Source of the DNA: Styela clava
Lineage: Eukaryota
DNA: 64,000 bases
Assembly (NCBI RefSeq): GCF_964204865.1
Contig: NC_135253.1
Span: forward strand, 15,624,001-15,688,000
Direction: 5' to 3'
Shown one piece after another: positions 24,970-64,000 of this stretch (its first letter is position 1; each line of letters starts with the position of its first letter). The notes beneath the pieces are model-generated. The model saw nothing but the letters and a program-made list of their open reading frames with translations, was not told the origin of the DNA and searched no databases. Both the position numbers and the translations under genes were made by a program.

Positions 24970-25084
24970 AAATATTGTATCCTATATATTCTAATGATAA
25001 TAAATAATAGCAATATAATGTATTATGCAGCTGCCAACGTCAATCGGTAGTCATTGACTTCCAAGATAAACTGATACGCGGATT

Positions 25085-28000: not shown

Positions 28001-29117
28001 ACACTTACATCTCGAACCAGAATTAACTAGTTAACTTACCTCACGATTGACTGCTTTAGACGCTCTTTCGTAAATGCCAAACAGTTTTTCAATAAACCAG
28101 TCAGCTTTAGTAACACTAAAAGTAAATATATAACTCTATATTCATATATATAAACGTATACAGGGAGCGTATTAGGAAGAACTTGAGACGGAAGTCTTGT
28201 TGGCGGAAATCTTTTTTTTTCGCTTCCCTAAAGATCACAGACTAATCAAGCAAGAAACGGTATGAGACTTACAAAACTGTCTAAAGACTAATATATTTGC
28301 CTGTACTTAGTTCCTATTTATGTGATCACAGACTAGATATAAGTTTGCTGAATAAGTTGTTCTATAATTATGATTGCTACATACGCAAACAGAGTAGGAT
28401 TTACCTGTCCAATCCTTTCTTTACAAAATCGAAATCAAAACTGACATTATGATGAAGTTTGTGAAATTCTGGGCAAACCTGGTTTACTCTGCGCATAACA
28501 TCAACGGGAATTCTCGAAGGAAACAAACAAAATGGAGCCATCTTGTCATACTGCAAAACCAACCATTAGTAAATTTCATTCGCTTAGATCCAATATTTTT
28601 AACGCTTGGTATCTGGATAAATTGCAAGTGCTTATTAGAAAAGAACAAAAGTCTAAAAAGTGAAAACGACTTCAATCGTATACGTCCGTGTGTAACTGAT
28701 AAGCATTTTACTATCAGCGCAACGAATTTTGCTTGAATGTCATTCTGTGTGGACGAATTTCAGTTGACAAGTATATAGTTCATGAAAATAGTCGGTCTTA
28801 TTTTTTGGAATTTACTTTCTAGAAATTGAATATTTTGACGGAAAAGATAGTTTTTTATTTTCAAACATGACATAGCGAGGGTACAACCAATTTTCAATAA
28901 TTTTAAATTTTATAGAAAAAACCTAAAACTAGTTTATTCTTCTACAATGCAGATATTTACGTACTGGTTTTCTTGACTCATCATCGTCATACCACTGGAA
29001 GAAAAAATTTTGCTTCTTGGCCTCTTCGATCGCTGATGTTGAGCATTTTTTCAACAATTCTTCCGATTGAAATACATTTTCAAAATGATGTTCAGTAATA
29101 CTATTACCAGAAGACAT
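25085..29117 (-). pseudogene. GSS-like: Glutathione synthetase-like copy E, full 10-exon structure with one nonsense codon
   Basis: Exons 29117-28965, 28550-28405, 28115-28040, 27708-27290, 27011-26942, 26669-26481, 26292-26211, 25951-25891, 25647-25516, 25208-25085. TAG at 26498-26496 in exon 6 where twin E' has TAT (Tyr). Confidence 0.85.
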
Positions 29118-29594
29118 TTTCTATGTATTTAGTATATTTTTTTTTTGAACCGGAAAATATATTCTATGATATATGTATCTGAAATAAAATAAATATCTTT
29201 CTTTTCATGTGATATGTGAATCTCTTCTAAAACATACCCCATACAAAAATACCATATATATATGGAAAATATATAGTTATAAAAGCAACAAGATTGTTCA
29301 ATTTGATATTCACGTTCATCAAATTCCGTAACAAGAAAAACATCTCCATACTCCATGTTCCATTTCTAAAAATATTACTTGTTTTCGATTTTATAAAATG
29401 ACTTTATTAGTAACATTTTAAACAATATGAACAATATAAACTTCAGTTCCACAAAGTAAAAACAAAAGCTTGTTTTGATGAAGGATATTTTTATCCAAAT
29501 CCAACTTTTATGAATTCGGGTATATGACATAAACATTCAATGCCGGACTACAGAAACTAAACATAATTACCATACCGCTTTTAATCATTTAGAA

Positions 29595-30083
29595 CAGGAT
29601 TTTCCAAACTTTTTGGGTCGCGGACATCTATTTGTGAATTTCAGTTTTGACGGACCTCCATCTCAGGACGCATCAATTTTTGTGACTATCCAACGAAGAA
29701 AGATAATGTTTTAATTACAACACGAAAGACGTTAATGTGATGAATGAGGTTGTTTTTCACTTATCAATTTTCAGACCAAACGTGATCAGCAAACACATTG
29801 ACCGGACGCTACGTCAAGTTTAGACCTTCTTTTATCATCGTATTGATAAAAGCTGAAAATGCTGCCTCACACGTGTGGGTCGTTGCCAAAGGCAATTAAA
29901 TTGTAATTGCCTTTTCTGACAGAAATGTATATTCATCCATAGCGCTCAAACAAAAAGATGAAATGGCTTTTTGATTTGATTGAAATCAAACAATAAAGAT
30001 CGATCAGATTATTTTCATATTGATGAGGATACCCCGCGCAGTCATTACAGACCACCAGGGGCAACCTAGTTTGGGAAACCGTG
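29595..30083 (-). mobile_element. hAT (Charlie/Buster) non-autonomous element
   Basis: Ends CAGGATTTTCCAAAC and GTTTGGGAAACCGTG; 8-bp TSD ATTTAGAA/CTTTAGAA; minus-strand relic EYTFLSEKAITI*LPLATTHTCEAAFSA. Confidence 0.75.
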
Positions 30084-31322
30084 CTTTAGAAATTAATTAC
30101 CAACATTTCTGTACAGAAAAAATCTTCTCACTTACATCAAACCAAGTATGGTGAGACACTACTTACACTAACAATTCCTTCTTATCGTCCAAGTGCAACC
30201 ATACTATAGTGTTAAAATGTCTACAAAACGTTGTGGTCAATTTCAAATCGTAACAATATATAAGGCAAATATATTGATCACACACAACCATCAATATCCC
30301 ATTGTTCAACTCATTGTTCCTATTTGAAATGTTTGATAAATATTTCTGCCAGACGAGGCGTCATATCTGTGGCAGCAAAACCGTGCTCATGTTGAACTCT
30401 CGCTTCCAGTAAAGAGCCTATGTTAATCTACTTGGGAAAACTTGCTACACCAAATGTATGTTATCTGGATAAATTTCAAGTGCTTACTAGTTAAGAACAG
30501 AACTCTTAATGCGTCTTCAATTGTACGCCCATGTGTAACTGATAAGCATTTTACTATCAGCGCAACGAATAGTAATTCTGTGTGGACAAATTTCAGTTGA
30601 CAAGGATACATTTCATAAAAATAGTCTTATCGTGTTTTGGAATTGATTTAATATATATATATATATATATGTATATTTCGACAAAAGAATTGTTTTTTTT
30701 TATTGATCATAAAGCTTTATAAGTTTATTATTATTCTACAATACAGATAGATGATACACGTACTGGTTTTAATGACGTTTTGCTCCTTGATCTAATATGT
30801 CTGTGACAATGGTGTTATTGAACAGTAATTTAAGAATGTATTTTAATCGGATGAATTGTTAAAAAAATGCTCAACATCAGCGACTAAAGAGGCTAAGAAG
30901 CAAAAAAAATTCTTCTAGTGGTCTGGTATGATGATGATGAGTCAAGAAAACCAGTACCCATCTATCTGCATTGTATAAGAATAAACTAGTTTTAGGTTTT
31001 TCTATAAAATTTAAGATTATTGAAAATTGGTTGTACCCTAGCTATGCCATGTTTGATCACTATTCCGTAGAACTATCTCTTTCTACAAAGTATTTAATTT
31101 CTAGAGAGTAGATTCCAAAAAATGTTAGGACTAACTATTTTCTTAAATTATATCCTTGTCAACTAACATTTGTCCACACAGTGTCCACACAGTGCCACAA
31201 AGTAAAAACAAAAGCTTGTTTTGCTGAAGGAGATATTTTACCCAAATCCAACTCACATTAACATTCAATGCCGGACTACAGAAACTAAACATAATTACTA
31301 TACCGCTTTTAATCCTTTAAAA

Positions 31323-31811
31323 CAGGATTTTCCAAACTTTTTGGGTCGCGGACATCTATTTGTGAATCTCAGTTTTGACGGACCTCCATCTCAGGACGCA
31401 TCAATTTTTGTGACTAACCAACGAGAAAAGATAATGTTTGAATTACAATACGAAAGACATGAATGTAATGGATGAGGTTGTTTTTCACTTATCAATTTTC
31501 AGATCAAACGTGATAAGCAAACACATTGACCAGACGCTACGTCAAGTTTACCCTTTATTTTATCATAGTATTGATAAAAGCTGAAAATGCTGCCTCACAC
31601 GTGTGGGTCGTTGCCAAAGGCAATAAAATCTTAATTGCCTTTTCTGACAGCAATGGATATTCATCCATGACGCTCAAACACAAAGATGAAATCGATTTTT
31701 GATTTGATTGAAATCAATTATTAAAGATTGATCAGATTATTTTCCTATTGATGAGGATCCCCCGCGCAGTCATCGCGGACCACCAGGGGCAGCCTAGTTG
31801 GAGAAACCTTG
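31323..31811 (-). mobile_element. Duplicate of the same hAT element (local ~1.73 kb duplication)
   Basis: Same ends and flanks as 29595-30083; a single hybrid copy occurs at 56909-57400. Confidence 0.75.
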
Positions 31812-33524
31812 CTTTAGAAATTAATTATCAATATTTCTGTACAGAAAAAAACTTCTCACTTGCATCAAACAATGTAGGGCGAGACATTACTTACACTAAC
31901 AATTTATTCTTAACCTCCAAATGCAAGACATACTGTGGTGTTAAAATGTTCACAAAACGTCATGGTCAATTTCAAATTGTAACATTCTATAAGGCAAATA
32001 TATTAATAACACACAACCATCAATATCCCATCGTTTGAACAATTGCTCCCTTTTCAAAGTTTTGTAAATATTTCTGCCAGACCAGGTGTCATATCTGTGC
32101 CAGCAAAACCGTGCTCATGTTGAATTCTCGCTTCCAGTAAAAAGCTTTTGTAAATCGGCTTGAAAAAACTTGCTACACCAAATGTTTGTTATCGTGAAAT
32201 TGGGGGGAGACGTCTGGTGCTATGCCGCGATATTTCGAGAAAAGCGCAAATTTGAATTGAAACACTTACATCGATATTTGGCTCGGACCAGTTGTAGGGC
32301 CCCATTTGATGTTACTTTTACTTTTGTAAACGACTCTATTGGGTATGAAAAGTTCATAAGCATCGTATTGCAAAGTCGTCGTCGTTGTTAGTCTTGATAT
32401 TGAAACGACCTTTTGTTGAAGGGGATATTCGCGTTTCTCCACAACCAAGTTTAGAATTTTCAGTGCTTAAGAAAGAAGTGACAAAAGGCTATTTTATTTT
32501 CAAATCAACTCTGGGTATTACGGGACCCGATATTAAATCCCAAATTTTGCTGTTTTATTTCAATTCATTGTGATATTTTTTCTTCTGTCAAAAGTTACCG
32601 CCGCCGTTGCGAATGTCCGCCGTTTGGCTGAGGGAATTTGCTGCTATGGTTAACATTTTTATTGGAAACGAAGTGGACCTATCGATCGTTATGTTGTTAG
32701 TTCAGCTTGATAGAAATATAAATATATTGTTGCAGAAGCTACCAATATCAAAAGCTCAAGTGCCCAACGTGTTGTCACAGAAAAACCACCACAACCAGTG
32801 GCCACGTCTGCTCGGATTTTTGCCTGGATATAAACAGAACAGGTTCTGATAACTATTGTAACATTAGCGTGACAGCAACCCGACCTGATGTTTAATTGCG
32901 AGTACCAGCATTTGTTGGTAATTGTCATTACAACAATTGATGCTGTTTGACAGAAATTACTCGTAGGAACCATCGTACTCCTGCAGGCCTTAATCGGGTT
33001 AAAAATTGGCCGCTACTTCTATCATAGTAGTAATTACTACTGTAAATAATAGTGACATAAAAACATCCTGGTCAGGATTTCTGACATTCAATTGCAGGTA
33101 CCATTAGTCAGCGTGCAAATGATCTGGCGTCTATTTCGCCGTCGTCTGGACTTCTCCAGAGCATGCGGTCTAATTCTTATCGAATCTGTTTTTTGTTGTT
33201 AAAATGTTAAAAGGTAACATGCATAATGTATTTTTGTATTTTTTGAGAAAGCAATCATTAACAAGGTATATGCATGTGTAATCAACAAGGTACATATATA
33301 TACAAGCTTTTTAGACACGGTTCAGGTCTGACCTAATATCTTTGCAGAAAAAAATCAAAATTTATATATTTGTCGTTAAAGAACACAGATGATAGTCATT
33401 GTATAGTAAGTCAAATATCTAATTCTGAAAACAGTTGGAAGAATTGAATACGATGAATGAGCCACAAATTGCTGTTATAACTAAATTTAGTTGGATTCGT
33501 TCTAAACTATTTTTTGTAACCTTT

Positions 33525-35397
33525 TTACCCAGATTTTAACAACAATGGTTTGCTTTCATCAATGATGCTCCTTCGTTGACTCGGAGTGTCTGTTTCATGA
33601 ACCATCTCTGCAGAGAGTCGTCTATAGTCTGGCTTAACAAGGACAACAAGGAAGCACTGCATAAAACATGCAATCAATGGAACTATGATAGCCATGGTTG
33701 CCCCATGCATGTCCATAATTTTCCTAATCACAGCACCAAAAACGAACGCTGCCACCTCGGAAGGAAAATAATATATTGACATAAGTGTCGTATTGTCGAA
33801 CGGGTAGATGACTTCAGTGAGAAATTCCGTAAAAATGACGTTGGAGCATATGCGCAAGGCCGCAAGCGCGGGATAGAGAACGATTAACACTGGGAAATAT
33901 TTACATAAATGCCCAAAATATATTCCTCCAGTTACCAGCAACATTCCGACAACGACTGAAAAATAATAATTTTTGGGCTTGTCACAAAAAACTGAATTAA
34001 CGTTTTCTACATGTATTACAGTATTCGCAATAAAATTCCAAGTCTACAGGACAGTTTGCGAAAAATACACACCTGTACATAAGTATATATAATGTTTCAG
34101 AAAGTATGTATTTTTGTATGGTTACAGGGTAATGCAAAGTTTGCACATGCGGTATGCTAGAATAGCATATATATGATATGTTTTAGGAGATGTCTGGATC
34201 GTATAAATTGTGCAATATTAACTGTGAATAGAGCAATTCAAGTGATAAATGAATAGCATATACTAACACCTAGATGACTTACTTGCCATAGCGAATTTTT
34301 TGAATTTCTTCAATCTGTCTAAATAGTATCCAACAGCAAGACCAGCAATTATCGATGCAAGAGTACCAGCTATTCTAATCCACCCAATTTCACGGTATGT
34401 TACTTCGGGAAATGTCATTGAGATCAACGAAGGAGCAAGCACTTTTGCTAATATCAAGGCTGACAATCCAAGTGAGTTAGCACTAGCAAGAAGTAGAAAT
34501 TGACGATTTACCAACAAATTCAAAACTAATTCCAAGAAAGATGTGTCTACTTCAAGAGAAGCCCTCTCGTTTTTATCCGCTTTCAACGAAGTAAGTATGT
34601 TAGCCTGTGCTGCTCCCGGCGGTGTTGGTGGTTGATTTTTCAACATAAAAACGAAAAACAATGCTGATATCGTAAGAATGAGAGCAGAAGTTCCTTTTGT
34701 GCTCATGAAAATAAGCCTAATATCATGGGAATTGTTCTCTATTTGTGTAGCGTTCCTGTAAGGAAGACACATAGGGTAGACTAATGCTGCTGTCGCCTCT
34801 CCCAAACTCACAGCTGACCATGTTACGCCGATGGCGGTCGCCGTTTCTTGTGCAGGAAACCAGCTAGCAGCAAGCGTAACCGGTAATATAAAATTGATTC
34901 CGTTGGATAATCCAGTAAATAGTACTGCAGATAGAATCATCGGATACAGTTTTCTGCAAAAGAATAGGAGGCATAATATGCAGTTAAAGTGTGTCATACG
35001 TACCTTGTACATTTAATTATTGTGAAAAACATCAACCGTGCGGCAGGTTATTTGGTACATGAAAAAAAATACAACTATACAAGAATTACATAACTTGCCT
35101 GTTATTAAATGCAAAAGTTCCTATGCCGATTCCGATACCAGCCGACAGCGCCATTATTGTTGCTTGAAATCGTAATCCAATTTTATTTTTAAAAATTGGT
35201 ATCAACACCGTACATACTCCAGCCACCAAGAAGTTCAACAGCGTCAAAATGTCTATTTGAAATGGGGTGACATTGAAGTAATTCGCGACGACGTCATTTA
35301 CAAAACTGTACGAATAAATTTCACAGAGAATGATCGCCATGCAAATTGATAAAACTGCTAGAAACACCCAACGAATTGGATAAACTTTGTATTCCAT
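33525..35397 (-). CDS. FLVCR-like: FLVCR/SLC49-family MFS transporter (466 aa)
   Basis: Exons 35397-35099 (GC donor), 34953-34283, 33955-33525 total 1401 nt, open. Motifs YKVYPIRW, LAASWFPAQETATA, PPTPPGAAQA, GYYLDRLKKFK, EFLTEVIYP, KPDYRRLSAE; many hydrophobic helices. Confidence 0.88.
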
Positions 35398-38300
35398 CTC
35401 TTCTATCTGAGAACAATAGAAAATATATTCTATTTTCAAAAGGCCATCAACGTCGAAAACCACCGTTACATCAGCAATGCATTGGCGTTACATCAGAGCT
35501 TATGATATTACAATAATCGCAAAAATTTGTGTGAGGGTGGGGATTGGGTAAAACAAAACGTTTAAAAATGATTTCGCGAAACAACGCAGTTTACGAAGTC
35601 AAGAAACATACAGTTCTTTGAGGATAGCATTTCTTCTCAGATGCAAAATTATCTTGTAGTTGAAAATTTAGGAATATTTTTAATTTTAGCCGTTTAACAT
35701 GGCTCGTTTTGAGCAACTTTCGTTTGATGATTTCAAAATCTCTAGGCTAGGCTCGATGATGAGCCGTGCAAATTTGAAACTCTGTATCTAAAAGAACATG
35801 CGATGTGCAGAGGATTGAAATAATGGAAAATGGAATTAACAATGAACAAAGTACTCTCTTTAACATCTGACAATCTGCATCTTCTTAACGAGTTCTTTCA
35901 CTTATAATTTTTTTTTATTATAGTGGAGATTTGCAGAAGAAAATTCTTGAAGTTCAGATTATTTCCGGATGGAATATTACGAAATATTTGATTCGTATAC
36001 TTATTTGAATTTTTCTGAAAAGTTCGAACCAAAAGTTGTAATTTAAGTGTGCTGCAAACGATTTCATCTATCGTTCTTACCTTAGCTTTGACTTGGCCGA
36101 TAGGGAGAACTGCACATTTACGCTACTAATCGATGTTGATATCGTCCTTGAGTTTCTAATTCACCTTCTGCTTAGAGAAACAATTTTCAATGGAACTGAT
36201 TAGAAAGCAAATTCTATTCGCCGCTTCTTACAGCAATAAATTCTAAAAAAATCTATTCTAGCCAACGATAAACAAGACTATGATAACACTACAAAATCTC
36301 GTTTCAATAAGTTTGAAAAGCAAACAACAAAAAAACACGATGTATTTTTGACTGACGCTGAATCGGGTGCAAGGAAAATAAGGACAAACCTTGACTAACT
36401 GGTATAAACGATAAACGAGGCGTACATTTGCCTCTTCGAAGGTTGTTTGTTTTCCGCAAAGAAACTCGACAAACGTTCAGGAAATAACACATCATGCGCT
36501 TTTTTTTTATGTCATATTGATCAAGCATATCCCACTGATAAAGTTTCAGATATGCTTCGTTTGTGCGTTTGGTATGAAATGTTTCCTGAAATGTGCGTAT
36601 CCGATTTTATGATACTATTCCACTCACAGGAAGCTAAACTCCTCTGTACCGGAACATTAATTTTTCAGGAAATGTGAAAACAAAGTAAAATTGAAGCTTG
36701 ATAATTTGAGTAAATCTCATGATATTAACCGCGTATTATATTTTGCTATGTATATGATGGCCTATCTTATATCCGTACTATCCGACCGCAGTTTATTATA
36801 GAATATCTCATATTTATTCCATAAGCTTAAGTTTTCTTAATTTGGTGATCAAAAACATAAAAAATCTGTTCGATGAGTTTCTTTTCGTCGGTTATGAGCT
36901 TGGCTGGATTTACCATTGGCCATGGTATGCTAAAGCCTAGTTGCCTCGAAATTCAATTAACTATTCATGTTTAGTCGTTTTTGAATTATAAAGGCTTGTT
37001 TCAGAATAAATCAAGTTTAAAATTTTCTGAAAAATGATAATTTTTCAATTAGATTGAGATTTCTTGTTCCAAATATTATATTATATATAAATACGGTTGA
37101 ATAAACGAATTTGTCGAATTACCCTACCCATCAAACCTTGGGAACAAAATATGCTAGGTTAAACTAATTAATCAGTTGATACTGTAATAATGTTTTTATT
37201 TTTTTAAATAAGAGGAAAATATCGATATATCACTATACTGATTCATTCAAGCAGAACGGGCTTGACAACGCCTAAATCCGACCCAGGCTATGAGACACGA
37301 TACGCAGCAACAATGTTTTACCTGTATTATATATATTTTTCTGTTATAGCTGCAGATACGGAATTTGTTGTTTGGGGCGACTTTCTGCACCCCTAGATTT
37401 GGGGGAGGGGTCAGTTCACAATTCGAAAGTTGAGTTCTTAATCATACCTTGAAATGTTCTTTCGCGACATATAGAAAACAAAAATCACTTTCATACTGAG
37501 ATGTCAGGAGATGCAACAAAACAATTTAGTGAAAACTTACGCATTTTATTAAAAAGGTGCTAGAAATAAAGTGCGTTGGAAAAGCGAAAATACGGATAGT
37601 TCTGGCAATCCTTGTTTAGCCGATCCCCGATGTTAGAATAGGACATTTGTTAATGCAGCGGTTTGCAGCAGTGTATTTAAGTATTGATAGCCGTAATTAT
37701 ATGACGTCATAGTTAGAATTGTTTTGATAGGAGGTTCACGAATATATGCCATTTCCTGTTGACTGCTTAGGGCACGAGTTTAGGGCGTTAGTGTTGTTCC
37801 TGTACATATTCTAGGCTTGGCTTGATTAAGATTATTTTAATGCCTAATTTGCTGTTTTGAATTAATATGTAGAATTATAAAGTTAGGATATGTACTGGTA
37901 TTGAGCTTAGTTGTATATTGTCTCGATGAAAATGTAGTTGTGATTTCTATTTGAACGGTTCTTTTTCTGTATTAATATAATAATCTGGCAAAGAAGCACT
38001 GAATTCAATTCAGCAATTCAGTTACCGCAGTTTCGAAAGTATGATTGTCACTTTAATTGGAAGACAATACATATCGTTATGTTTTTATTAATTTCATGAA
38101 CTCGTCCTGTGTATAGGGCTATGATCGTTATTTCCTGCATATTGGGTTTCTTTAAATTATTAAAACTTTCGAGTATTAACTGCATTGAATTGGAACACAA
38201 TATTATATCAGTCTATTACAATTCAAACAAAAGAGAAAGCTGCATGCCTGCAGCAACAGCATTAGTACTAAAGTAGACCAGACCCTCTGATTTGAAGATA

Positions 38301-39289
38301 ACTACGAATTTAGTCGTTCACACAAGTTATTTTTACTGTGTGACGGGGATTAATTTTAACAAAAACTATTCAGGGCTGCATTCATAATCCACTCGAGCTT
38401 GCAATTCTCATTTATTGGCTAGCAAAAATTATAGCTCATTTCTTTTATATGAATAGTTGTTTCATGCATTGAATATTGTAATAAATAAGTATATGTTATT
38501 ACAGTAGCTATAATATTTCGAAATCCCACATAGCCATACTAAATAACAAACTCTCCTGATAGAATTTCGAACATAGATGTCTTAAGTAGCGTTTTGAAAT
38601 GATCGATATCAAATCGCAATTCTGTTTGATGTGTTACTCATGTCTTACTCTACTTGGTGTGTAGATATCATCTTAGGAAATTTGCTCATGACTTGACTGA
38701 ATTTATTATATATATACATGCTATGTAATGCTTAGCATTATTCAAGTTTTGTGTATCGATCCTAAATAGGCAAATATGTTAAAATGTCAAAAACGAAAAA
38801 ATGACAGAGCTTCAATAGATTCGAATACACTTGAATACAATGACAGCAAATGTATTCAATGCATGGCCCATCGGTCGGATCCGGTCGGTAAGGCTGCCTC
38901 AGATAGAATTTAATTTTCAAAATGAAAATGACATCCAAGTAAATCATGACCATTTATATTTTTCGATTTGATTTATTGGCAGTTCTTATTCAATTCGGTA
39001 AAAACAATAGTGGTTTTATGATGCCCAGTATAGAAGCTATCTTAAAATAAATGCATAAAATAAAAACACAGAAATACCACAAGAAATCAAAATTACAGAA
39101 CTCAGGTTCAAAGGTTAGAAACTAGTTAAGATGAAAAAATTTGAGGAGATTTCTCAAGTGTTTGCACCCAGGGCTGCCGCAATCTGCAAAGTTTGAAATC
39201 AAAACTTTCTGATTTTCAAGTCGTTTTAGGTTGGTTCTGTGTGCTGAAATAGTAGAAATTTAACAAGTGATACTGATTAGAATCAGACC

Positions 39290-41141
39290 ATGCATATTAC
39301 TACCTGCGAGATGCACACATGCGGCGAGCAGTTGAGAATCATTGAAACTGGATTTCCAAATATCTCGGGGGAAACAATCTTGGAAAAGATCGCTTACATA
39401 CGAGAAAATTGCGATGATATAAGGAAGTATGTATTTCTGAAATTGCAAAGTTTGCCATATAACTTTTGCCCTCAATGTTAAACTACCAGAGAAACATAAA
39501 AAACATCACAATGAGACTAGAATCCCATAGTCAAATAATCATATCTCCCTTCCCTTGTATAGAATATCATCTTGTGGTACTCCTGAAGTATGCGCACCAA
39601 GATGTCGCATAAGCTGAACCCTAACGTGGTACACAATCTGAATTCGGGTTATGTGTCATCTTGGTGCGCATACTTCAGGAGGTCTCATCTTGTTTTATAC
39701 TGAATAAACATTTAGTACTGCCAGATTGTAGTTGGTATATTTGGCCCTGGTGGAGTTTGAAGTTGTAGTTAAACTTAATGCAAAAACTGTCATACTTCTG
39801 GAATTTATTTAAGGTTTTTGATGCATGAGCCTCGTGGACATCATGATATGTTTGGAACATTGAGAGTTGAACCAGATTTACCAAATGCAGATGCAGCATT
39901 TATATTTATACACAATGAAGGATATGGTACAATGTGTGAACATGCCATCATCGCCTTGGGAAGGTAGAATGTTATGATTAACAGTTTTGTATATTTTTAA
40001 AATACACACATATGCTTGTTTCATGCATATTTTTGTTCATTTTCACACCTGATAATTTTGGTAGAAATAGTAGTTCAGCTTGCGTGTGTGACAAAATAAA
40101 TTAGTATTTTTGGAATTGGCTTATGAGATGGGTTTTTCATCTTTTCTCTGTTTGCTGAGATAATAACCAATGTTTTCAGATACTGCGTTGATTACAATAT
40201 AGTTGAAGCAAAAGAGCCAGAAACCTTGGTCAATATTCAATGTCCATGCGGGCTTATTCCAACCTATGTTTCGTATGGTAATGGTTTATCTGGGAGACTG
40301 AGGTTTCAAAGTGTGCCATCATTTGTTTTGAAAATGGGTAAGAAGAAAATGCTGGTGTGATTTTTTTTTGTTATTCAATATGTTACTGTATACAATGTTG
40401 GGTAGACCATAGAGTCTCAGCTCAAGTCTCTCAAACGCTCGTCTGTACATACCAAGGACGAACACAATGCTATACAACACATTACATTGTACACATACCT
40501 AGATGTTAGAATATGTAATATATATAAATGGAAATCTCAATATAAAGCAGTTTTTGTGCATACCTATTTAAACAACAACATTGTCATTTTCAGATGTCAA
40601 TGTGAATGTACCAAACATTGGTATGATCACTGTATACATATCTTATGGAGGAGTATTCTATGCCTTTGTTTCTACTGACGTACTCGGTTTGACAGTCAAG
40701 GCTGGTGATGCATTGAAGGCCGTGGAAATTGGGCAAGCTGTAATGAATGCCACTAAAAAGATTGTAAGACATACCCGTAACTGTTTTGAAGCATTTAAAA
40801 ATTACCAAACTTAGATATGAAGGTATTACCTCAAATTAAACTCATATTCACAAAAAAGCCTGTAAATCGGTATTTAGGAAGGACAAGTTTTACGGAACAG
40901 GGTAACAGTATAATTATCAATACAAAAAAGTTTCCGCCATCTTCGTACATTATTTCACATCTTAGTTTTGTAAAACTGCTAATAATGCACAAACATCATA
41001 GGTTAAGGTTGAACACCCGGAAAATGAAGATCTTGGATTCTTATATGGCACTATAATATATGATAGAACAGAATTAAAATCAAAGGATTTGATTCGACAA
41101 ATGATAGTGTTTGCGGATCGTGAGGTAGGTGAAATTACACC

Positions 41142-41177
<36 letters not shown>

Positions 41178-41569
41178 CTATCAACAACTATTGTCTGGTC
41201 TCTTTTATTTAGTAGTTACATTGAAATTGGTGATTTTTTTAAGTTGGATAGAAGCCCATGTGGTTCAGGAACAGCAGCTCATATTGCTCTGATACACGCC
41301 AAAGGTCTACTGGATGGTAATTGTCAAAAAACATTCCAAAGTATCTTCAATGATTCAAAGTAAGTACTCTGATGTCTAAAAAGTTATTTAGTGTCCAATT
41401 GGTTCTCAATAACTCTTACAATCACTAGCTCATATACGTTTAAATTTTTCCAAGGTTTACTGGAAAGGTTGTCAAAAAAGCCAAATGCGGAAACTTCGGT
41501 CCAGTATTCGAAGAGAAAAGCGACTTTTTAAAAACGTGTCGAACAACAAGAACAAGAACAACAACATAA
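39290..41569 (+). pseudogene. L3HYPDH-like: Proline racemase / L3HYPDH family copy C, C-terminus replaced by repeat sequence (probable pseudogene or aberrant allele)
   Basis: Exons 39290-39426, 39814-39963, 40180-40337, 40594-40763, 41002-41124, 41244-41359, 41455 onward. Motifs MHTCGEQ, EPRGHHDMFG, HNEGYGTMCEH, LYGTI, VFADRE-LDRSPCGSGT. After KCGNF the frame runs into a repeat and stops at 41567-41569. Confidence 0.85.
39580..39681. mobile_element. Small MITE in intron 1 of gene C
   Basis: Perfect 25-bp TIR CTCCTGAAGTATGCGCACCAAGATG / CATCTTGGTGCGCATACTTCAGGAG; related to the 6757-6988 element. Confidence 0.75.
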
Positions 41570-41609
41570 TATTGAAACGATCGTTATGTCCACTTCGTGT
41601 CCAATAAAT

Positions 41610-42172
41610 TGGAATTTAGTCGTCCGGACAATTTATTTGAACTGTGTGACGTGGATTAATTTTATTAAAATCTATTCATAGCTGCACACAAAATTCATTT
41701 GAGCTCGAGAATCTCATTCGCTGGCCAGCAAAATTTCAAAGTGAACCATCTTTCATATATTATCATAAGCTATTGTGAATAAGTCTACCAGACAGTTTTA
41801 AAAGACTATTATAGTACTGCTTACAGTTAACTTGTGAAGACACTGTCAATGATACAGTGCGTATATATCTAGAAAAGATAAAATGTGCTCATTGTAGCTC
41901 ATTTCTTTTATATAAATAGTTGTTTCATGCGTTAAATATTGTAATAAATAAGTCTATGCTATTACATTAGCTATAATACTTCGAAATCCCACATACTAAA
42001 TAACAAACGCTCCAGATAGAATTTCGAACATAGATTAACTTCTTAAGTAGCGTTTTATGATCATTATGAATGATCATTATCAAGTCGCGATTCTGTTTTA
42101 TGTCGTATTCTTAAAATTACTTGGTGTGAAGATATCATCTGAAGCAAATTTGCTCATGACTTGACTGAATTT
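41610..42172 (+). repeat. Diverged direct copy of the upstream region of gene C (~38305-38705)
   Basis: Shared GAATTTAGTCGT, TAGCTCATTTCTTTTATAT, GATAGAATTTCGAACATAGAT and TTTGCTCATGACTTGACTGAATTT in the same order. Confidence 0.8.
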
Positions 42173-42596
42173 TACCGCTACCTTACTTTGTACAGGTTAT
42201 GCAATCGAATGTTGTGTTGAGTAAAAATCAATGAAACAAGAAATATCAAACCATCTATATGGGTTCTCATTGTAACCTTCTTTAAAATATTACTAGTTTT
42301 GATGATCAAGCCATAGCTTTTGAGTTTGAATTATAACAAATTTGTTGGCAGTACTGTATAATAAGCGATATGTATATATATATATATATACAAATTATCA
42401 CCAAGTCTAGTATACTGTTTTATGCTCAATATTTGTATTTAAATGACGTTAGATGATTTATTATCCAAATTCACAACAAAGTGCCAAGACAAAAATTTTG
42501 TTAAATGCTTTACATTTAGTATTTGGTATTAATTTGTTTCGAAAAATTTTGACAAAATATATATTTACAATCAAACATTACATTAACAATTATACA

Positions 42597-42997
42597 TGCG
42601 CCCATCGCCTAAATTTGGCAAAACAAGTGGGCCTATCCAAAATCAGTTGGACCAGGGGTGCGCCCATCGCCTAAATTCGGCAAAACAAGTGGGCTTATCC
42701 AAAAGCAGTTGGATCAGGGGTGCGCCCTTCGCCTAAATTCGGCAAAACAAGTGGACCTATCCAAAGTCAGTTGGATCAGGGGTGCGCCCATCGCCTAAAT
42801 TCGGCAAAACAAGTGGGCCTATCCAAAAGCAGTTGGATCAGGGGTGCGCCCATTGGCTAAATTCGGCAAAATAAGTGGGCCTATCCAAAAGCAGTTGGAT
42901 CAGGGGTGCGCCCATCGCCTAAATTCGGCAAAACAAGTGGGCCTATCCAAAAGCAGTTGGATCAGCGGTGCGCCCATCACCTAAATTCGGCAAAACA
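42597..42997 (+). repeat. 62-bp minisatellite, ~6.5 copies, at the start of duplication copy 2
   Basis: Units at 42611, 42673, 42735, 42797, 42859, 42921, 42983; array begins mid-unit. Confidence 0.97.
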
Positions 42998-45584
42998 ATG
43001 CACTGATACAATAATGAAGTATATACTTATATCGGCGGCAACATACGTAGGTTCGAATCATGGCTGGATTAGACGATGAGACACCCCAGGCTTTACTAAT
43101 TGTAAGACCGCTCTGTAATAATGGTGTCACAGCAAATCTGGTAAAACAACATAATGGGGATTTTGAGTTTATGTATTATGGCATCACAAGTACTGTCATT
43201 AATTGCATGAATAATAAAACTTAAGCTACAGGCAAGATACATACGTACAAAATGCCATCAGAAAATCCGACATCATAATAGTCGTTTTTAGTGAGATCTG
43301 ACATAGTAAAAATTATATATAATAATCCACACATTCTATGTTGCTTAGATTAATTAGTATATCGACATTTTTTTTATAAAATAAAGACTTTTAATATAAA
43401 TAAAAATATGAGATCTATAAAGCATTTTTTACAATTTAAAAAATATATAAAATTAATAATAGTTCAAAATTGATTGTCAAGGCCCAAGTTTGAAGATCCT
43501 AGGCTTTATCCTACTTTTTCTTATGGTATATCCGATCCTGGTTCGAATTCCATGAGTTATGTGACGATGTGCAAGAGGATTGCTGGAATCCTCGCCGCTA
43601 CATGGTGGCTCACGTGGCATATCGGTTGCGTCTTCCTCCGCCAACCTCGTTTGCAGACACATTGCGCTACAGCTTGAGAAGGCGTGCATGGAAAAGTCGT
43701 CAATATTTGTGGCCTTTCGAAGGGTTCATTGCGAATAAGAAACAATTGTCAGGTTCTTTCATCGATTTTTCTTGTTCTAGTTTATTCTAATTATTTATTA
43801 CAAAAAAATCAAATAATACAGCCATTAAAAAAAATCAGGCAACAAAACTTGATTTAAAACAATTATTCAAAAACAATTCTTTTTGCACAAATGCCCAGTT
43901 ATTTGTGATCGACATCTATTGCAACTTCAGTGTCCAAGAAAGAACCTGAGTGGTGATATCAAACGGGTACTTCACATTCACTCCACTGTATGGTTTCTAT
44001 CTGCGAATTTGATTTCAATTATTTTGCAATAGTCTACATCTACATAATATACTACACATACTAGTGGTGATTATAGAAGAATTTTTTTTTATCCATCCGA
44101 ACTACAATTACAAGCAAAACAGGAGAACGCTATCGCGACTGGTTCATTTAAAACTTGGTATATAAATATAACAAACCATAAATAATACGAAGCCATGAAC
44201 AGCAATCAATACGGCCTTTGATAAATAATCAGCGTAAGATTATCATCGAGATTACGGTCATATGCTACGTTTCTTTTGTTCACTCAAAATAAACCTATTG
44301 GAGTGTTTAATTTTAAAAAAGAGAGTAAACGCTGTTCTAGGTTGTGGTTGATTAGATGTGTCTTGATTTTTCTATGCATTCTTCTAAAATTGCTCAGTGG
44401 ACAAGCAGCTATTCATAATTTAAAGGTCAATATCTCTAAAAGATGGTAGTGTTTCCGATTCTCTATTGCCTATACGGTGGACTTGGTCAACCTGCGATGC
44501 TAAATTACAAACTCGTTTGTAGCACAAAGTGGGCAAGCAAAACTGATCATTTCCACCAGAGTAATGGAGTAAGATTTTACCTTCAAAATATATTTTTTGC
44601 AATTGGCATTGGGAATATGGCATCAGACCTTTTTTATACCTGATTTGGTGGACAAGTAACTTATGTACTACCAATTCATTTCTGTGTTCGACGATCGAGA
44701 AAATGTCAACTTTTATTAAAAGAAGTAAATTTGGATAGACTTGCTATTGGAACATCATAACCGTTAATAGGGCGGAAGTCGTTCGCATATCAAACAGCAA
44801 AATAGTATTATGTCCTTTGAGCTGAATATGGATAGCAGCCTATCCCGAAAATGCTCTCTGAAGCCGATGCATTTCCCAGCATGTATGTTCAAAGAACTTG
44901 AGTCGTTGGCTAAACAAACGAAATACAAGTTAGGCACCTTTTTTTTTGGGGGGGGGGGGGGTTAATATAACAAATGGAAAATTTAACAAAAGGATTTTTA
45001 ATATATGTTGAATCATATTCAATAGTCTAACAACAAAATAATTGACATTAGAATAGTACAAATCTTGATAATCTGTGTGAAGGTGTGAAGACACGAGTGA
45101 ATAGCAGGAAATGATTTATCAAAGCGTCGTCTGTTTGCAATTTCGACATCACGACAGGAAATAAACACGGGAAGATCAATTACAGCAGAAGGAAAAGATG
45201 TCAAAAAAATATATGTAAATTGAGAAATCGCAACTCGTTAACGTGTACTGATTATTTAGGATACTTGCAGGTTAAAACTGAAGACACTCGCTCAGATTGA
45301 TGTGTTTATTATATATACAAAAAGGTTGAAGAATATTCATCTTTCAAACAAGCAGCGATTCAATTGTACGTTTTTTAAAAAGTCGGTAATTGGAAGTAGT
45401 GCAACATTACATTTCCAGCACTGAGTTGTTAAAGAAGGAAGTAAGGTTTAATATAACATTGAATACGCAAATTTTGTGGGTGAAATGAAATTAATTTAAG
45501 TCATTATACATTTTGGATTCATGTATATAAATATATATTTTATGGTGCAAATAAATAAATAGAAATAACATATATATTAAAGAA

Positions 45585-48500
45585 ATGTCTGCTAATAACG
45601 GTTTTATCGAACAAGAATTTGAAAAAATATTCAAATCGGAAGAATTGTTGAAAAAATGCGCAAACTCATCCATCGAAGTAGCCAAGAAGCAGAGCTTTTT
45701 CTTTCAGTGGTATGACAAGTCAAGAAAACCTGTAAGTATTTGGCGTGTGCTTAGCACAGTAAAATAAGTTAATGTTTTAGAATAAAATTAGGTAACAATT
45801 TAATTACTTGGAAATTCGCTGCATCCTAATTGTACCAGATAACATTATTTTAAACCTTTATAAAATTTCCTGGTAAGCACCAGCTTATATAGGCCTACAG
45901 TAGCATTTTATTGAGACACCCATATTCAGCATCAGGCAGGTCAATACATGAATAATGTTTGCTGCTGGTTCTCTTCACAGCACAATAAGATGGCTCCATT
46001 TTGTTTGTTTCCATCGCGAATACCCAGAAATGTTATTCGAAGAGTAAACCAAGTTTGCCCAGAATTTCATAAACTTCATCATAATGTCAGCTTTGATTTC
46101 GATTTCGTAAAGAAAGGATTGGACAGGTAAATTCTACTCTGTTTGCGTTTGTATAAATCACGGTAATATGATAAAGTTATGTTTAGTCATAAATTACATA
46201 TATATTGTTATAGAGTTAAATATTTACTTTTAGTGTTACGAAAGCGGACTGGTTCGTTGAAAAAATGTTTGGCATATACGAAAGAGTGTCTAAATCAGTC
46301 AATCGTGAGGTAAGTCAAATGGTTATTCTGGTCCTCCAAGATGTACGGTAAGTGTCGAATGTCCGTATCAGGTGTGGGTAGTTCTACTTGACAGCAAGTA
46401 TCTATCATGACAAGTTTGTTTGTGATTCATCCCTTTATGTGTAAAAAGTGATGCGTTGCAATGGTATTTTTTCAACTTCTGTACCCAAAAAAAGAATTTA
46501 GTTATAGCACTTTTTACGATGTGATGATTTAAATAAATATACGCATGTGTTGTTGTTAACAATTTCTACAAATTTATCGTGTAATTGAACAACTCATTAT
46601 GATTTATCTGTTATTTAATACATATGGTAAATAATTTACATTCCAGGAACGGTATGAGCTATCAATAACAAGAGCAGATTACATGGTGACAAAGACTGCT
46701 GAAGGAATCCAACTTCCCAAACTTCTGGAATGGGGTGTTTCAGGATGGGGATTTGGTGTAGAAAGTTTTCTCAAGCAAATTTACAAACGCTCCTTACTGG
46801 AAGCGAGAATTCAATTTGAACAAGGTTTTACTGGCAGGAATATGACGCTTGGATTGGCTGAAACGTTTATCAAAAGTTGGAAAATATACAACAAGTCAAA
46901 CACCGGAATATTGATTGTTGTCAGCGAAGAATATTTTTGCCTCATGGAATGTCACAAATTGAAAGAAAAAATATTAGAAATTGACCAGGATGTTTTTGTA
47001 GACATTTTAACACTACAGGAAGTGAGCAAGAATCTTACACTTGGAGGTCAGAAAGAGTTGTTAGTGTAAGTAATGTATCAACATACATGTTATTATGCTG
47101 AGAAATGCTTCTTCTGTACAAAAATATTGGTAATTTTTGAAGGATTAATTAATAGCGATATAGTGATCATCTTTAGTTTCAGAAGTCTGTTATGGGCTTT
47201 GAATTTATATGTCATATAAAAAATTAATACTATCAACCTAAGTCGCATTTTAATAAAAAACACAATTACAAAAACCGACTTTGTCTATAATTTGTGGTAC
47301 ATTGCAAATACTGTATGCTCATTTGAATATAGTCTATAAATGTTATCAATAAAGTGATTTTATATAGTCTAAAAGAGGCGACATTTTTAGAAATGGAACA
47401 GAGTATGGAGTTGTTTTTCTTCTCACGGGATTTGAAGAATTTGAATATCAAACTGAACAGGTATGTTGCTTTTATAACTATACATTTACCATCGATGGTA
47501 TTTTTATGTACGATTTTTTCTCAGAAATGCATGTTGGTAATAAAGCTATATAAAGTTGAGAGAATGTTTGCAAGCGTCTATTTCACATATTTATGAATTT
47601 TTTCAACTGTTTTTTTAAACTCAGGATTGGATCGCCCGTGAGCTGATGGAATATAGCACTGCTATTTTGTGTCCAAATATTTGCCATTCGATTGTGGAGC
47701 TAAATAAAATTATGGAAATTATGTCAAGACCCAAACATATGGAAAAATACGTTGACGATTCGGAGGCTGGTCTCATCAGGAATACTCTTGTTGAATATCG
47801 AACTCTAGAACAGGTAAATATCTTAATGTTCAAAATATGTGACAAAACGCAGATGGAGTAATTTTCATGTGATACATTGATATTCAATTTATTCTGTTTG
47901 AACTGTTGCTCATTCAAAAAGGCAAATTGCAACCACGAAGTTATTCTTAAGATCGATAAGTATGTTGATAGGTATTTGTCTGTTTGTTTGTTTGTTTGTC
48001 GGTTAGATACACGCAATATCTCACGAAAGCGAGGTTGATTCTGCTCCAAATTTTGCATGTGCATTCATCATTGTTCGGAACAGAAGCCTATCGATTTTAG
48101 ATGGATTATGTCGTATAATTAGCAAGTTAATTAGCAATTAATTAATTAGTGATGGGACACACGGTGTCACTATGGAGTAAGACCACTGTTTTGGGACATC
48201 CCCTAACCTCCGATCGATAAGTCCTCGGTTTCCAACCGAATTCTAGTTGAAACGTTGCATCGTTCATAATATCTTTTATTTGATTGCGTTATATTTTCAG
48301 GGCATGGTAGGCGACATGAATGCAAAACTGGGAATCACGAATCCCCACGAATACGTGTTAAAAGATCAGAGAGAGGGCGGAGGTGAAATTTTTGTTTAAA
48401 ACAAAGCAAGTGAATAAAATAAAAATGGAATAAACCTTTGACTGCTCATTGAAGTGAAGCATTGCAAAAAGAACGTGAATCCTCCATTGGCTCAATTATT

Positions 48501-49722
48501 TATAGAACCTAAAATTCTGTGAAGTCTAGTTATTTTCATATACGACGAAAGGACAACACGTGCCTGTTGACAATGTGGGTGATATAATAAGTTATTACAA
48601 AGCAAATTGCATTCATGAATTTAGTTCTTTAATCTTGTTTTCAGTAAAATACTTTCGTGAAGACGTTAAGAATATGCTGAAGAAATATCAAGGCACGCAA
48701 CAAAGGTATTTTTAGTATAACTAGATTTGAACATTACTCTTGTCTTGACTATTTTACCAGAATGTCTCTTTGGGGGTCCACGATGACTGCACAGGGGGTC
48801 CGCAACGAAATGCAAAGGCTCTGATCGATCCCTAATGATTGATATTAATCAAAAGGCCATTGCATCTTATTGGTTGAGTGTTGCGGACTAATATCCATTG
48901 TTGTCCGAAAAGGCATTTACAATTTTATTGACTTTTGCAACGATCTACATATGTGAAGAAGCATTTTCAGCTTTACCCATATAATGACAAAATACAGGTC
49001 GAGACTTGCCGTGGACTCGGACCTACGAGTTTGCTTGTCACAATGTCGTTTGTGTTGTAAATGAAATATTATCCTTCCTCGTTGGTTTGGCACAGAAATT
49101 GATACGGCTTATTATTGGGGTCCCCGTAGCCTAATAAGTTTGGAAAACTCTGTATTTGACAATAACATTTAACAGATTATAATGTATATCAGCAGCACTT
49201 AGTAAAATAACAAAAAGATTGTGTTTTATTTGAGGGGCCAATATATTCTCGTGGATCATATCAAACCAGTTATTGGAAAAAACGTTATGATTTTTTCGGA
49301 TGAAAATCCAGATCTTACTGTTGTAAATACCGTCACAGAAATTTCTTCATTCGGAGCCTTCCTCACGTAAGTTACATCATATATCGTTTTTAATATTTAG
49401 AAAAAAAACTTTTAATGTTCCCATGATATGTTATGTCCACGTGTGAAAAAGCTTTAGCTATGGAAAATATGCGGCATACATCGAAATATATAAATTTTCC
49501 GATCGTGTTATGGTCATAAATAGGACTTTTTTTCAGTATATAGAGCATAGATAGGTCGTGGAGCTCACTAATTTGTACTTGATTTTTTTCTTTTGCAGTA
49601 AAGGAAGAAATATCAGAATAAACGAATGCTTTGGGAACATTTCCAGGACGAAGCAATATGGAGTTGACGCAATCAGCACATCTAAAGGCAATTTTGCTTT
49701 GGATCTCATATTAACTACATGA
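45585..49722 (+). CDS. GSS-like: Divergent glutathione synthetase-like ATP-grasp protein, copy D'
   Basis: Exons 45585-45731, 45981-46126, 46234-46309, 46647-47065, 47391-47460, 47625-47813, 48301-48382, 48645-48705, 49235-49366, 49599-49722; about 4 aa differences from D. Confidence 0.9.
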
Positions 49723-52406
49723 TCGATTTATCTCGGAATTCAAGACCTACCGATTGACGTCGGCGACTGCATAATAATTATACAACCTCAAATACACATT
49801 ACACCATGGATGAAGTATACCTACTTTTTAAATTACTTTAGGCGAGAATTTCGTATACATCAACAGTTTTTATAAATTCGGAAAGATTTTTGTGAAGTCA
49901 ATCATTTGCCAAATTTTGACACTTTTAAAACAGTCATATATAGACATGGAACAGCGCTGCAGAGTCGGAATATAAATTACATTTTTGACGTGATCTATCG
50001 CTTCTTTAGCATTCGGTGTTGAGTCGTGAAAATCATCAACATAAAAAACATCATAAAACAGCATTGATTGGCTGTTTTCCCTTACCAGTGTGCGCGTGCA
50101 ACAATGACAGTTGCCCCGCTTCCAATATCAGTAATCATTATCGACATTCGTAGGTGAATCATTATACCGACCCCATTCTATAATTTTTACCCCAAAAATA
50201 ACGGTATATCAAAACATGAATAACAATAAGCTGAGTAATCTGAGTGCTTGGAATCCGAATATGTGTACCTGTTCATTAACAAAACCTAGAACTGTGTTGG
50301 CATCATTTACGTTCGGCTTCTTGAAAATTTCCCCGTCAAATTTGCCGTACAAGCCACTAGATTGACACACAAAAATCTGAATTCTTGATTGCCATTCTTC
50401 ATTACACGTTTTGTCGTTGTTTAGTATGAAGAAATGATTTGATCTGACTATCGTTACAGTTTGTATGAGGAGGAGGTTACGCGTTTCACTACAACTAATG
50501 CACCAATCAATTTTCATTACTCATATATGGGAGGAGTCGCCAAACGGGTTCTACTTTTTTTTTCAAATCAGCTATGGGCCCGATATTTCACTTTAAACTT
50601 TATCATTTTCGGTCAGACGAGACCGCCGCTTCGCTTGGTAAAATCAGTGCTACCTGTACCGATGTACTTGCGGGAAAGCGTGTCCGTTAACATCATTTGT
50701 CAAAATTTATAAAATTTACATGCATATTGAGGAAACAGGAATTTGACAACGAAAAGGGAAGGCAGTAAGCAATTTCGTCTCATATTACCGTCACATCGAA
50801 TCATTTCAGACGCTTCCTAACTTGTTGTGGAAGTCAGTATTTCTTGACTGAAATATGGCAGATTGTACTTATTTCAATTTCTTTAGCAAGAACAAAAAAT
50901 GGTTAGGTACATAATAAATGTCTCACTAAGTAAATTTGATGTTGCATGGTTAAGATAAATGCCACACAGCATTATACCTTTTTCCTACAACAAGACTTTC
51001 ATAAATATGAAACAAACATAATATTTGTCTCTGTGGAACAAGGACATTACTGAGAACGGCGTTGAAAACAAGGTGATTTCATTCTGAGTTAGTATCTTTG
51101 GCGTAGTGATTTGACTTTCCTGCCTATATGTATTTGAGCATTGCTTCTTTGTTTAGTTGATTTGCAAATACAAGAATTAATATAGAAAGGGAAAAACATC
51201 ATTCTGACTTGATTATACATTTATTAGTTACACATGGTAAATATTTACAAATGCATAAATCGACACTGAAACTAGCCTTAGTAGGATATATATATATAAC
51301 AAAATTGAAAATAAGATTCTCCTGATAGTTACTAATAATGAAAAATGATTTATAAAAATTCTAATTTAAATTCTAACAACTTTATCGAGTTTACTTTCTG
51401 ATATAATGACTTAGGTAAAAATGTTGATTCTTGATTAATATAATGGGAAAAGCAAGTATTATTCATCTATGGCAGTGGTTCCTGACCGTTCGACTAAATT
51501 GAAAAATTTTGTTGTTTGTTTTATCTTTCTGTCAGTGTAACCGATTGAATGCAAAACAGATGGAGTAACATAGGTTTACGATTTGCCGTCCGCCGTTAAA
51601 ATTGATGTTCGACAAGCAACATATTGATTGCTCGGCGTTGTGTTTGCCGACGAGAAATCACAATTTTCAAGTTCAATCTGTAACGAAATCACTTTGTTAA
51701 TTAGTTTACATTGTCCCACATTTAAGTAAACAATGTCACAGAGTATTATATATGTATTTCGATAATAAAATAAACAGAATGTTACTCGCTTCAAAATTTA
51801 TACTTCCAATGAATATTGCTTAAAATTTACATCGGAAAATACTGTCAAATTATTTAAGATTAAATGTTCAACCCAGATTTGTGTTTGGTCGCAATAAACT
51901 GTATCGCATGATGGTTCTTCTCACACCAAAATACGTGGAAAATGTCATGTAAATGTATAATAAGAATACTTTACAAGTTAATGGGTAAATAACGCGGAAC
52001 GACACAAATTTAAAAAAGCGATGACAGCTCCTACAAAGCCTAGAAAGAAAAGAATGAATTATTCACTTCGTGTGTTGCGGTAATGCGTGAAAGATTTTTT
52101 GCGTTAAAACAAAAGTGTATATTTGCGTTTAATTGATCGTTTGTTGTTCTATTATATTTTGTTGTAGTATGTGCCAAAATATTGTTACTCAACTACAGTT
52201 ACTCAAACACAGGTGATTATGTCATGTTTCATTCATTAGTCGGTCTGTAAGGACAAATCTACCGTGGGGGTAGAAAGATTGGGAACCACTGAAATATTGT
52301 ATCCTATATATTCTAATGATAATTAATAATAGCAATATAATGTATTATGCAGCTGCCAACGTCAATCGGTAGTCATTGACTTCCAAGATAAACTGATACG
52401 CGGATT

Positions 52407-56431: not shown

Positions 56432-56599
56432 TTTCTATGTATTTAGTATATTTTTTTTTTGAACCGGAAAATATATTCTATGATATATGTATCTGAAATA
56501 AAATAAATATCTTTCTTTTCATGTGATATGTGAATCTCTTCTAAAACATACCCCATACAAAAATACCATATATATATGGAAAATATATAGTTATAAAAG

Positions 56600-63900: not shown

Positions 63901-64000
63901 TCCTGTGTACAGGTGTATGATTGTTATTTCATGCATTTTTTTTTTTTTTGAATTATTAAAAGTTTCGGAACACGAGTATTAACTGCATTGAATTGGAACA

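Follow-up and report, generated by a model that had tools for sequence, protein, structure and literature searches.

The superfamily that includes the human dehydratase L3HYPDH, the proline racemases and the 4-hydroxyproline 2-epimerases (HypE) comprises three types set by the active-site pair, according to the excerpt of PMC3958920, which also states, citing Visser 2012, that a Thr-to-Cys mutant of the human enzyme shows T3LHyp epimerase activity. In the available part of PMC1964878, a Cys/Cys pair is described as insufficient for racemase activity: Phe at site R1 marks racemases, HypE has Ser or Val at R1 and His at R2, and Cys/Cys proteins with Tyr or His at R1 were inactive on Pro and 4-Hyp. 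PMC4364671, again in excerpt, suggests that Phe at site 1 may be limited to racemase-like enzymes and describes one archaeal enzyme with activity on Pro, 3-Hyp and 4-Hyp; excerpts of PMC4113996 and PMC5144071 report, respectively, a single function served by varied active-site pairs and a bifunctional 3-Hyp dehydratase/2-epimerase from Pseudomonas. The proline racemases named in excerpts of reviews are bacterial, archaeal, trypanosomal or fungal, and the excerpts of PMC8779045, PMC5169069, PMC10851380 and PMC12247034 name no animal proline racemase.

Here we describe nine L3HYPDH-like genes (A to I), obtained by gene modelling, in the genome of the tunicate Styela clava. Only H has a Cys/Thr active-site pair; A to G and I have Cys in place of Thr. 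The copies share with human L3HYPDH a direct orthology, the FLYGT and VFAD motifs, the Cys137 region and Gly at R2, and H has the full signature. D, F and I, together with the broken copies C, E and G, differ from the human enzyme in Thr273 to Cys and Tyr76 to Phe; I differs further in Tyr241 to Ala, and in A and B the pocket is rebuilt. The human T273C mutant is alike in substitution and scaffold (PMC3958920, excerpt), but it keeps Tyr76, so its nearest counterparts are the forms of sharks and molluscs, whereas Styela D and I add the Tyr-to-Phe change. The best PDB match of the Styela copies is the human enzyme (top structure matches E 6.8e-105 and 3.1e-98), and of the NCBIfam models the dehydratase scores highest (339.8 bits versus 301 for the racemase), neither model reaching its cut-off. 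The prokaryotic model PRK13969, with an equivalog cut-off of 556 bits, gave sub-threshold scores of 301 for D and 287 for I.

With the proline racemases of T. cruzi (TcPRAC, 1W61) and A. sticklandii (AsProR, 7PB3) and the bifunctional T. litoralis ProR (TlProR, 6J7C), the family has in common the Cys/Cys pair within MCGH and DRSPCG, complete in D, F and I but not in C (MCEH) or in A and B (MCGE, GRGPCG). D and I also share with these racemases Phe at R1 (Phe102) and at Phe290; in the alignment to 1W61 both occur in C, D, F and I, and A and B lack the Phe at R1. Unlike the racemases, the Styela proteins belong to a different subfamily with lower scores, have Gly rather than Cys or Leu at R2 (TcPRAC position 270; every copy, by pairwise alignment to 1W61) and GSG for GTG, and their Cys arose within the dehydratase clade, without bacterial transfer. 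The likeness to HypE extends to Cys/Cys and the fold; the HypE pattern of Ser or Val at R1 with His at R2 is absent from Styela, which has Phe and Gly there and scores far lower.

The L3HYPDH-like genes of Styela clava

The window, by which we mean the whole stretch of 64,000 nucleotides analysed (C4:15624001-15688000, Styela clava), contains copies A, B and C. A genome scan with Pfam PF05544 gave 46 matches among 53 candidates scored, all within C4:15.62-15.77 Mb or at one locus on C6; bit scores were 261.7 for B, 277.9 for C, 336.7 for D, 337.9 for H and 327.9 for I, against a curated cut-off of 27. Our gene models agree with NCBI Styela clava proteins (P0300 for A, P0302 for B and P0003 for C), with seven exons in each of the three genes and GT-AG at all exon junctions. 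Residues are numbered as in the human enzyme, from PMC9309405 or by counting from Cys104 and Thr273. Coordinates without a prefix are window positions.

C4:15623635-15623804, exon 1 of copy A, just upstream of the window
723..2558, + strand, exons 2-7 of copy A, with MCGE (838) and GRGPCGSG (2160)
11288..14118, + strand, copy B (XP_077968020.1), 7 exons, intact 344 aa, spliced, with MCGE (12143) and GRGPCGSG (13515)
39290..41569, + strand, copy C, L3HYPDH-like, 322 aa with a read-through tail
39290-39426, 39814-39963, 40180-40337, 40594-40763, 41002-41124, 41244-41359 and 41455-41569, + strand, the 7 exons of copy C
39836..39856, + strand, GHHDMFG of copy C, with Phe at the position of human Tyr76 and TcPRAC Phe102
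39932..39943, + strand, MCEH of copy C, the first catalytic Cys followed by Glu for an invariant Gly
41247..41270, + strand, DRSPCGSG of copy C, the second Cys (TGT, 41259-41261) at human Thr273
41497..41498, + strand, breakpoint in the last exon of copy C; identity to D, E, F and G runs up to 41497, with unrelated DNA beyond
C4:15688871-15691158, copy D (XP_077968191.1), 333 aa and intact, 0.9 kb past the window
C4:15764852-15767087, copy H (XP_039249428.2), intact, the only Cys/Thr copy with Tyr (DRSPTGSG, GHHDMYG)
On C6, copy I (XP_039254997.2), intact, Cys/Cys with Phe, FLAGT instead of FLYGT

The original prediction placed a Cys/Cys catalytic pair in all three window copies, and this pair is real in each of them. 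The second motifs it named were recovered by a six-frame scan of the window, with DRSPCGSG at 41247 in C and GRGPCGSG in A (2160) and B (13515); a search for the pattern R[SG]PCG[ST]G gave three occurrences in the window and none in 60 base-shuffled windows. Its reading of GHHDMFG in C as carrying a racemase-type Phe agrees with the alignment to the Phe of TcPRAC, AsProR and TlProR, and the intact C-type twin that it expected about 1 kb past the window is copy D. The first motif had been given as MC(G/E); the MC is indeed kept, but that notation merges two different lesions, MCEH in C and MCGE in A and B.

Conservation was judged in a homolog set of 117 non-Styela sequences among the best 120 of 7433 matches. 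Copy C differs from D in G88E, D163Y and an altered tail (dN/dS 0.33, 20 differences). Its Glu at Gly105 (MCEH) and its Tyr for the Asp of DISYGG replace residues that are Gly and Asp, respectively, in 117/117 non-Styela homologs among the best 120 of 7433 matches, and the break in its last exon costs about 33 C-terminal residues. Having broken two invariant residues and lost its C-terminus, copy C is therefore probably dead, a decaying and non-functional duplicate.

Copies A and B are both intact at 344 aa, share 89% identity and have open frames with a dN/dS of 0.23. They lack Asp74, Tyr76, His106, Tyr241 and Asp269, each at least 97% conserved among the 117 homologs (best 120 of 7433 matches); His106, which is Glu in their MCGE, is His in 117/117 non-Styela homologs of that set. 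According to excerpts of PMC4364671 and PMC9309405, the residues absent from A and B close the pocket or hold the carboxylate or ring nitrogen, His and Asp being the ones that PMC4364671 places in contact with the substrate carboxylate or ring nitrogen. The model of B (pLDDT 92.7; TM 0.91 to 6R76) keeps the proline-racemase fold, a two-domain DAP-epimerase-like arrangement, and B groups within the tunicate clade. All six B introns are confirmed by spliced contigs; one of the confirmed junctions encodes E-GRGPCGSG, and the Asp is therefore truly lost. An assembly or annotation artefact as the source of GRGPCGSG is ruled out by these contigs and by the recurrence of the motif in 6/6 cluster members from two annotation versions. 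B-type orthologs were found only in Styela, with nothing above 46% identity among the 50% cluster representatives, and an ESM Atlas search for them returned generic family clusters only. A and B probably still function as proteins, with another ligand or without catalysis.

D and I are both undamaged and carry MCGH and DRSPCGSG together with the Phe typical of racemases; both keep Asp74, Arg270, Asp269 and Tyr192 and have Cys at 273. Tyr241 is retained in D and is Ala in I. Among the remaining copies, E has a 1-base frameshift in exon 1; F is open, its usual exon 2 acceptor is GG and its NCBI model (P0241) begins in exon 2; and G has a 16-base deletion in exon 2, with an intact G-like protein in another annotation (P0244). 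The motifs DRSPTGSG and GHHDMYG of H are the human dehydratase signature, and the catalytic codon at the Thr273 position is ACT in H and TGT in C to G and in I. The case for racemase or epimerase chemistry made in the original prediction would hold for the intact copies D and I and fails for A, B and C; the window copies are thus the weakest racemase candidates, and the good ones, D and I, lie outside it.

D and H are 91.6% identical, with 28 differences in 333 residues, two of them at the diagnostic residues 252 and 59, and form a ready-made natural pair for the one-residue switch known from the human mutant. Values of dN/dS are 0.16 for both D-H and D-I. Exon 6, where the catalytic codon lies, has 9 sites joining D with I and 5 joining D with H, against 29 and 143 elsewhere, where D groups with H against I (Fisher p 2.4e-4, best of 7 exons). 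This mosaic would fit gene conversion in which the catalytic patch was either transferred or left untouched. A single-sequence fold model of D reached a pLDDT of only 31.6 and is uninformative. Copy I is also without the exon 5/6 intron that is present in every C4 copy (C6:10873927-10874165).

Transcript evidence came from four runs of three studies, which we took by guess to be RNA; only contigs were used, aligned to D and B as references, and depth was not used for ranking genes. In these RNA-like runs the contigs skip introns at GT..AG. All six B joints occur in X1, X2 and X6 and five in X5, one contig covering all seven B exons, and A-like contigs are present in X2 and X6. A D-type contig of run X1 spans exon 6 with one difference, the base change that makes the Phe-to-Tyr difference of H (place 2423) occurs in 4/4 runs, and letters specific to I are found at joints in X2 and X5. 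High-copy short interspersed repeats in introns of B (13750-13966) and D (L010:2158-2269) have very deep contig cover.

Distribution and origin of the Cys/Cys pair

In the homolog set, position 273 is Cys in 28 and Thr in 89 of the 117 non-Styela sequences among the best 120 of 7433 matches; none has the intermediate Ser, although TGT and ACT differ by two bases. The same sequences all (117/117) have Gly105, His106 and the DxxYGG Asp; Asp269 is present in 116 of them, Tyr241 in 115 and Asp74 in 114. The original prediction of an unusual lineage does not survive this count, and a Cys/Cys pair unique to one lineage is rejected by its presence across many animal groups. Visser 2012 is said to have reported Thr in most eukaryotic members and may have noted Cys/Cys eukaryotic ones as well. 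A survey of Cys versus Thr across metazoans had been proposed, with widespread and already characterised homologs as a threat to novelty: Cys/Cys is widespread, and no study or assay of an animal Cys/Cys L3HYPDH was found in the literature searched, which largely excluded subscription journals.

Within the best 120 of 7433 matches, Cys at 273 occurs in 8/8 cartilaginous fishes, 8/10 molluscs, 2/5 echinoderms, 2/2 other tunicates, 1/1 amphioxus and 1/2 Priapulus sequences, in 6/44 unnamed sequences, and in 0/38 bony vertebrates, 0/2 hemichordates, 0/3 other spiralians and 0/2 named bacteria. Further cluster members checked from cartilaginous fishes were also Cys in 8/8 cases. Phe at 76 accompanies 3/28 Cys forms and 0/89 Thr forms of this set, the other 25/28 Cys forms keeping Tyr, and its co-variation with Cys is non-significant (sign test p 0.5, few pairs). 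Bacterial relatives of the L3HYPDH clade have Thr at 80/80 loci; Cys/Cys members, sought there for pathway context, numbered 0 in those 80 loci. An unnamed Cys clade (P0160/P0184/P0206) gave no match above 61%, and P0181, an unnamed teleost-like Cys/Cys sequence sister to Oryzias, comes from a single contig. The sampled cartilaginous-fish orthologs (P0137, P0140, P0143, P0157, P0165, P0180, P0183 and P0201) are all Cys/Cys and annotated as dehydratases; one shark ortholog is XP_007891512.2.

A quick PMSF tree was built from 60 rows (27/28 Cys, 26/89 Thr and 7 tunicate), with both trait residues masked and without a bacterial racemase outgroup; its deep branches are weak. The best tree has 14 Cys/Thr changes, which with hand-chosen rows is a minimum that gives no rate and no direction, and 10 independent differing pairs on starred (well-supported) branches. 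These pairs include Styela D/H, two genes of Priapulus that share a contig, a pair of Haliotis species and Diadema/Lytechinus. Sharks, rays and chimaera fall into a single Cys clade (99, starred) within the jawed-vertebrate clade (100, starred), and the Styela copies group with Phallusia and Clavelina as a tunicate clade (95, starred). We show by this comparison of sequences that Cys/Cys is a recurrent animal variant of L3HYPDH, with repeated switching between Thr and Cys in animals, and that the Styela copies descend from L3HYPDH and not from a bacterial racemase. Horizontal transfer of a bacterial racemase is rejected by the introns held in common with the Thr copy, the tunicate clade and the best match to the human enzyme. 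Arguably, the Cys/Cys orthologs of cartilaginous fishes are a larger finding than the Styela array.

Predicted chemistry of the Styela copies

We infer all enzyme activities of the Styela copies from their sequences. In the expansion of L3HYPDH to nine copies one Cys/Thr copy was kept, H, likely an ordinary 3-hydroxyproline dehydratase, and D and I, with Cys/Cys and Phe, are predicted two-base 2-epimerases or racemases acting on free proline or 3-hydroxyproline. One Cys, as thiolate, would abstract the proton at the alpha carbon and the thiol of the facing Cys would return it to the other face, and Thr in place of the second Cys would leave elimination of the 3-hydroxyl as the sole outcome. 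The Tyr-to-Phe change may leave a pocket that fits a ring hydroxyl less well and proline better. Stereoinversion, as epimerase or racemase, is probably the main activity of D and I; free proline as the inverted substrate is plausible though short of an even bet, and inversion of 3-Hyp only seems unlikely. Weighing against the racemase reading are the Gly at R2, the Tyr241 kept in D, the dehydratase as best NCBIfam model, the non-significant co-variation of Phe with Cys and the Tyr kept by 25/28 non-Styela Cys forms, a residue found at this site in inactive Cys/Cys proteins (PMC1964878, excerpt). The role could be the making of D-Pro or, the reaction being reversible, the salvage of dietary D-Pro or cis-3-D-Hyp into the L pathway served by H, two roles that look alike in sequence.

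A second explanation, which we consider rather doubtful, is that the Cys/Cys forms are mainly trans-3-hydroxyproline dehydratases or bifunctional dehydratase/epimerases in which Cys is tolerated and epimerase activity is incidental. The shark clade lies well supported inside jawed-vertebrate L3HYPDH and keeps Tyr76 and Tyr241, with no shark Thr paralog among the matches listed (best 120 of 7433); the ortholog position of these Cys/Cys proteins in cartilaginous fishes, with no Thr copy among those listed matches (8/8), suits a protein that may still be dehydrating. The same explanation draws on the Pseudomonas bifunctional enzyme (PMC5144071, excerpt), the insufficiency of Cys/Cys for racemase activity (PMC1964878, excerpt) and the top-scoring dehydratase model. 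However, Thr is fixed in 38/38 bony vertebrates among the best 120 of 7433 matches and in 80/80 bacterial relatives, which argues against free interchange of Thr and Cys; moreover, Styela keeps both forms at 91.6% identity, and Priapulus has both on one contig.

Action on another small substrate, or a role without catalysis, is an improbable reading for D and I, yet for A and B taken alone it is the likely one. In A and B it is consistent with the five pocket residues absent from them, with a dN/dS of 0.23 in two open genes of which B is spliced and keeps its fold (TM 0.9), and with the lack of any relative above 46% identity among 50% cluster representatives; in I, the change of Tyr241 to Ala points the same way. 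Both Cys are nevertheless kept in A and B, few pocket residues of D depart from the dehydratase consensus, and the superfamily allows varied pockets for one reaction (PMC4364671 and PMC4113996, excerpts).

A possible source of D-proline in animals

Free D-Pro reaches 1625 umol/100 g (94% D) in the polychaete Glycera and 6-238 in bivalves, according to the excerpt of PMC10918092; a D-Pro measurement for Styela was not found in the literature searched. The Cys/Cys L3HYPDH forms, all named 'dehydratase' in databases, are a candidate source of D-proline that would include a vertebrate enzyme, that of sharks. On a tentative reading of the sequences, which we hold at rather less than even confidence, animals may repeatedly have turned their own hydroxyproline dehydratase into a proline racemase by recurrent Thr-to-Cys change, and the resulting enzymes would supply the endogenous source so far lacking for D-proline in marine animals, including vertebrates; Cys would then have become fixed in cartilaginous fishes and common among molluscs and tunicates, with Tyr-to-Phe as a further refinement in Styela, Phallusia, Mactra and amphioxus.

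The duplicated array and its neighbouring genes

The window copies lie in an array with the following further features.

About 15227-38197, repeated at about 42673-64000 (within 15227..64000), segmental tandem duplication
8685-9164, glutathione-synthetase-like (GSS-like) relic between A and B
18252..22399, + strand, divergent GSS-like (ATP-grasp) gene, 10 exons, open 486 aa
About 45585-49719, + strand, its GSS-like twin
About 25088-29117 and 52410-56431, - strand, inverted GSS-like paralogs
33525..35487, - strand, MFS transporter gene (PF07690), with a twin at 59110-61078 (- strand)

The duplicated unit recurs past the window, where it carries copies D, E, F and G; the Cys/Thr copy H belongs to this array as well. 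A 62-base tandem repeat opens each unit (15227-15498 and 42597-42998) and is a possible recombination site. One exon of the GSS-like gene matches human GSS at E 2e-4; the first copy has a changed substrate-binding region and keeps the KxQREGG and TEISSFG motifs. All 17 genome matches of the GSS-like exon fall in this array, the ordinary GSS being on C18, and the inverted copy has an apparent stop near 26500. The MFS transporter is present in five copies, one per repeat unit. The putative racemase, the ligase and the exporter have, as a group, the look of a small biosynthetic cluster, but co-duplication of chance neighbours explains the arrangement equally well; that Styela has an animal gene cluster for making a D-proline amide, with the putative racemase co-amplified beside the divergent ATP-grasp ligase and the MFS exporter, is very improbable. 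About 13 kb upstream of A lies an animal haem peroxidase gene (PF03098; L008:3953-6718, - strand), a single open frame of 922 aa with a WxxW repeat. The right flank of the array holds a dehydrogenase E1 component gene (L018:4694-7084, - strand) and a Skp1-like gene (L019:1838-2209, - strand).
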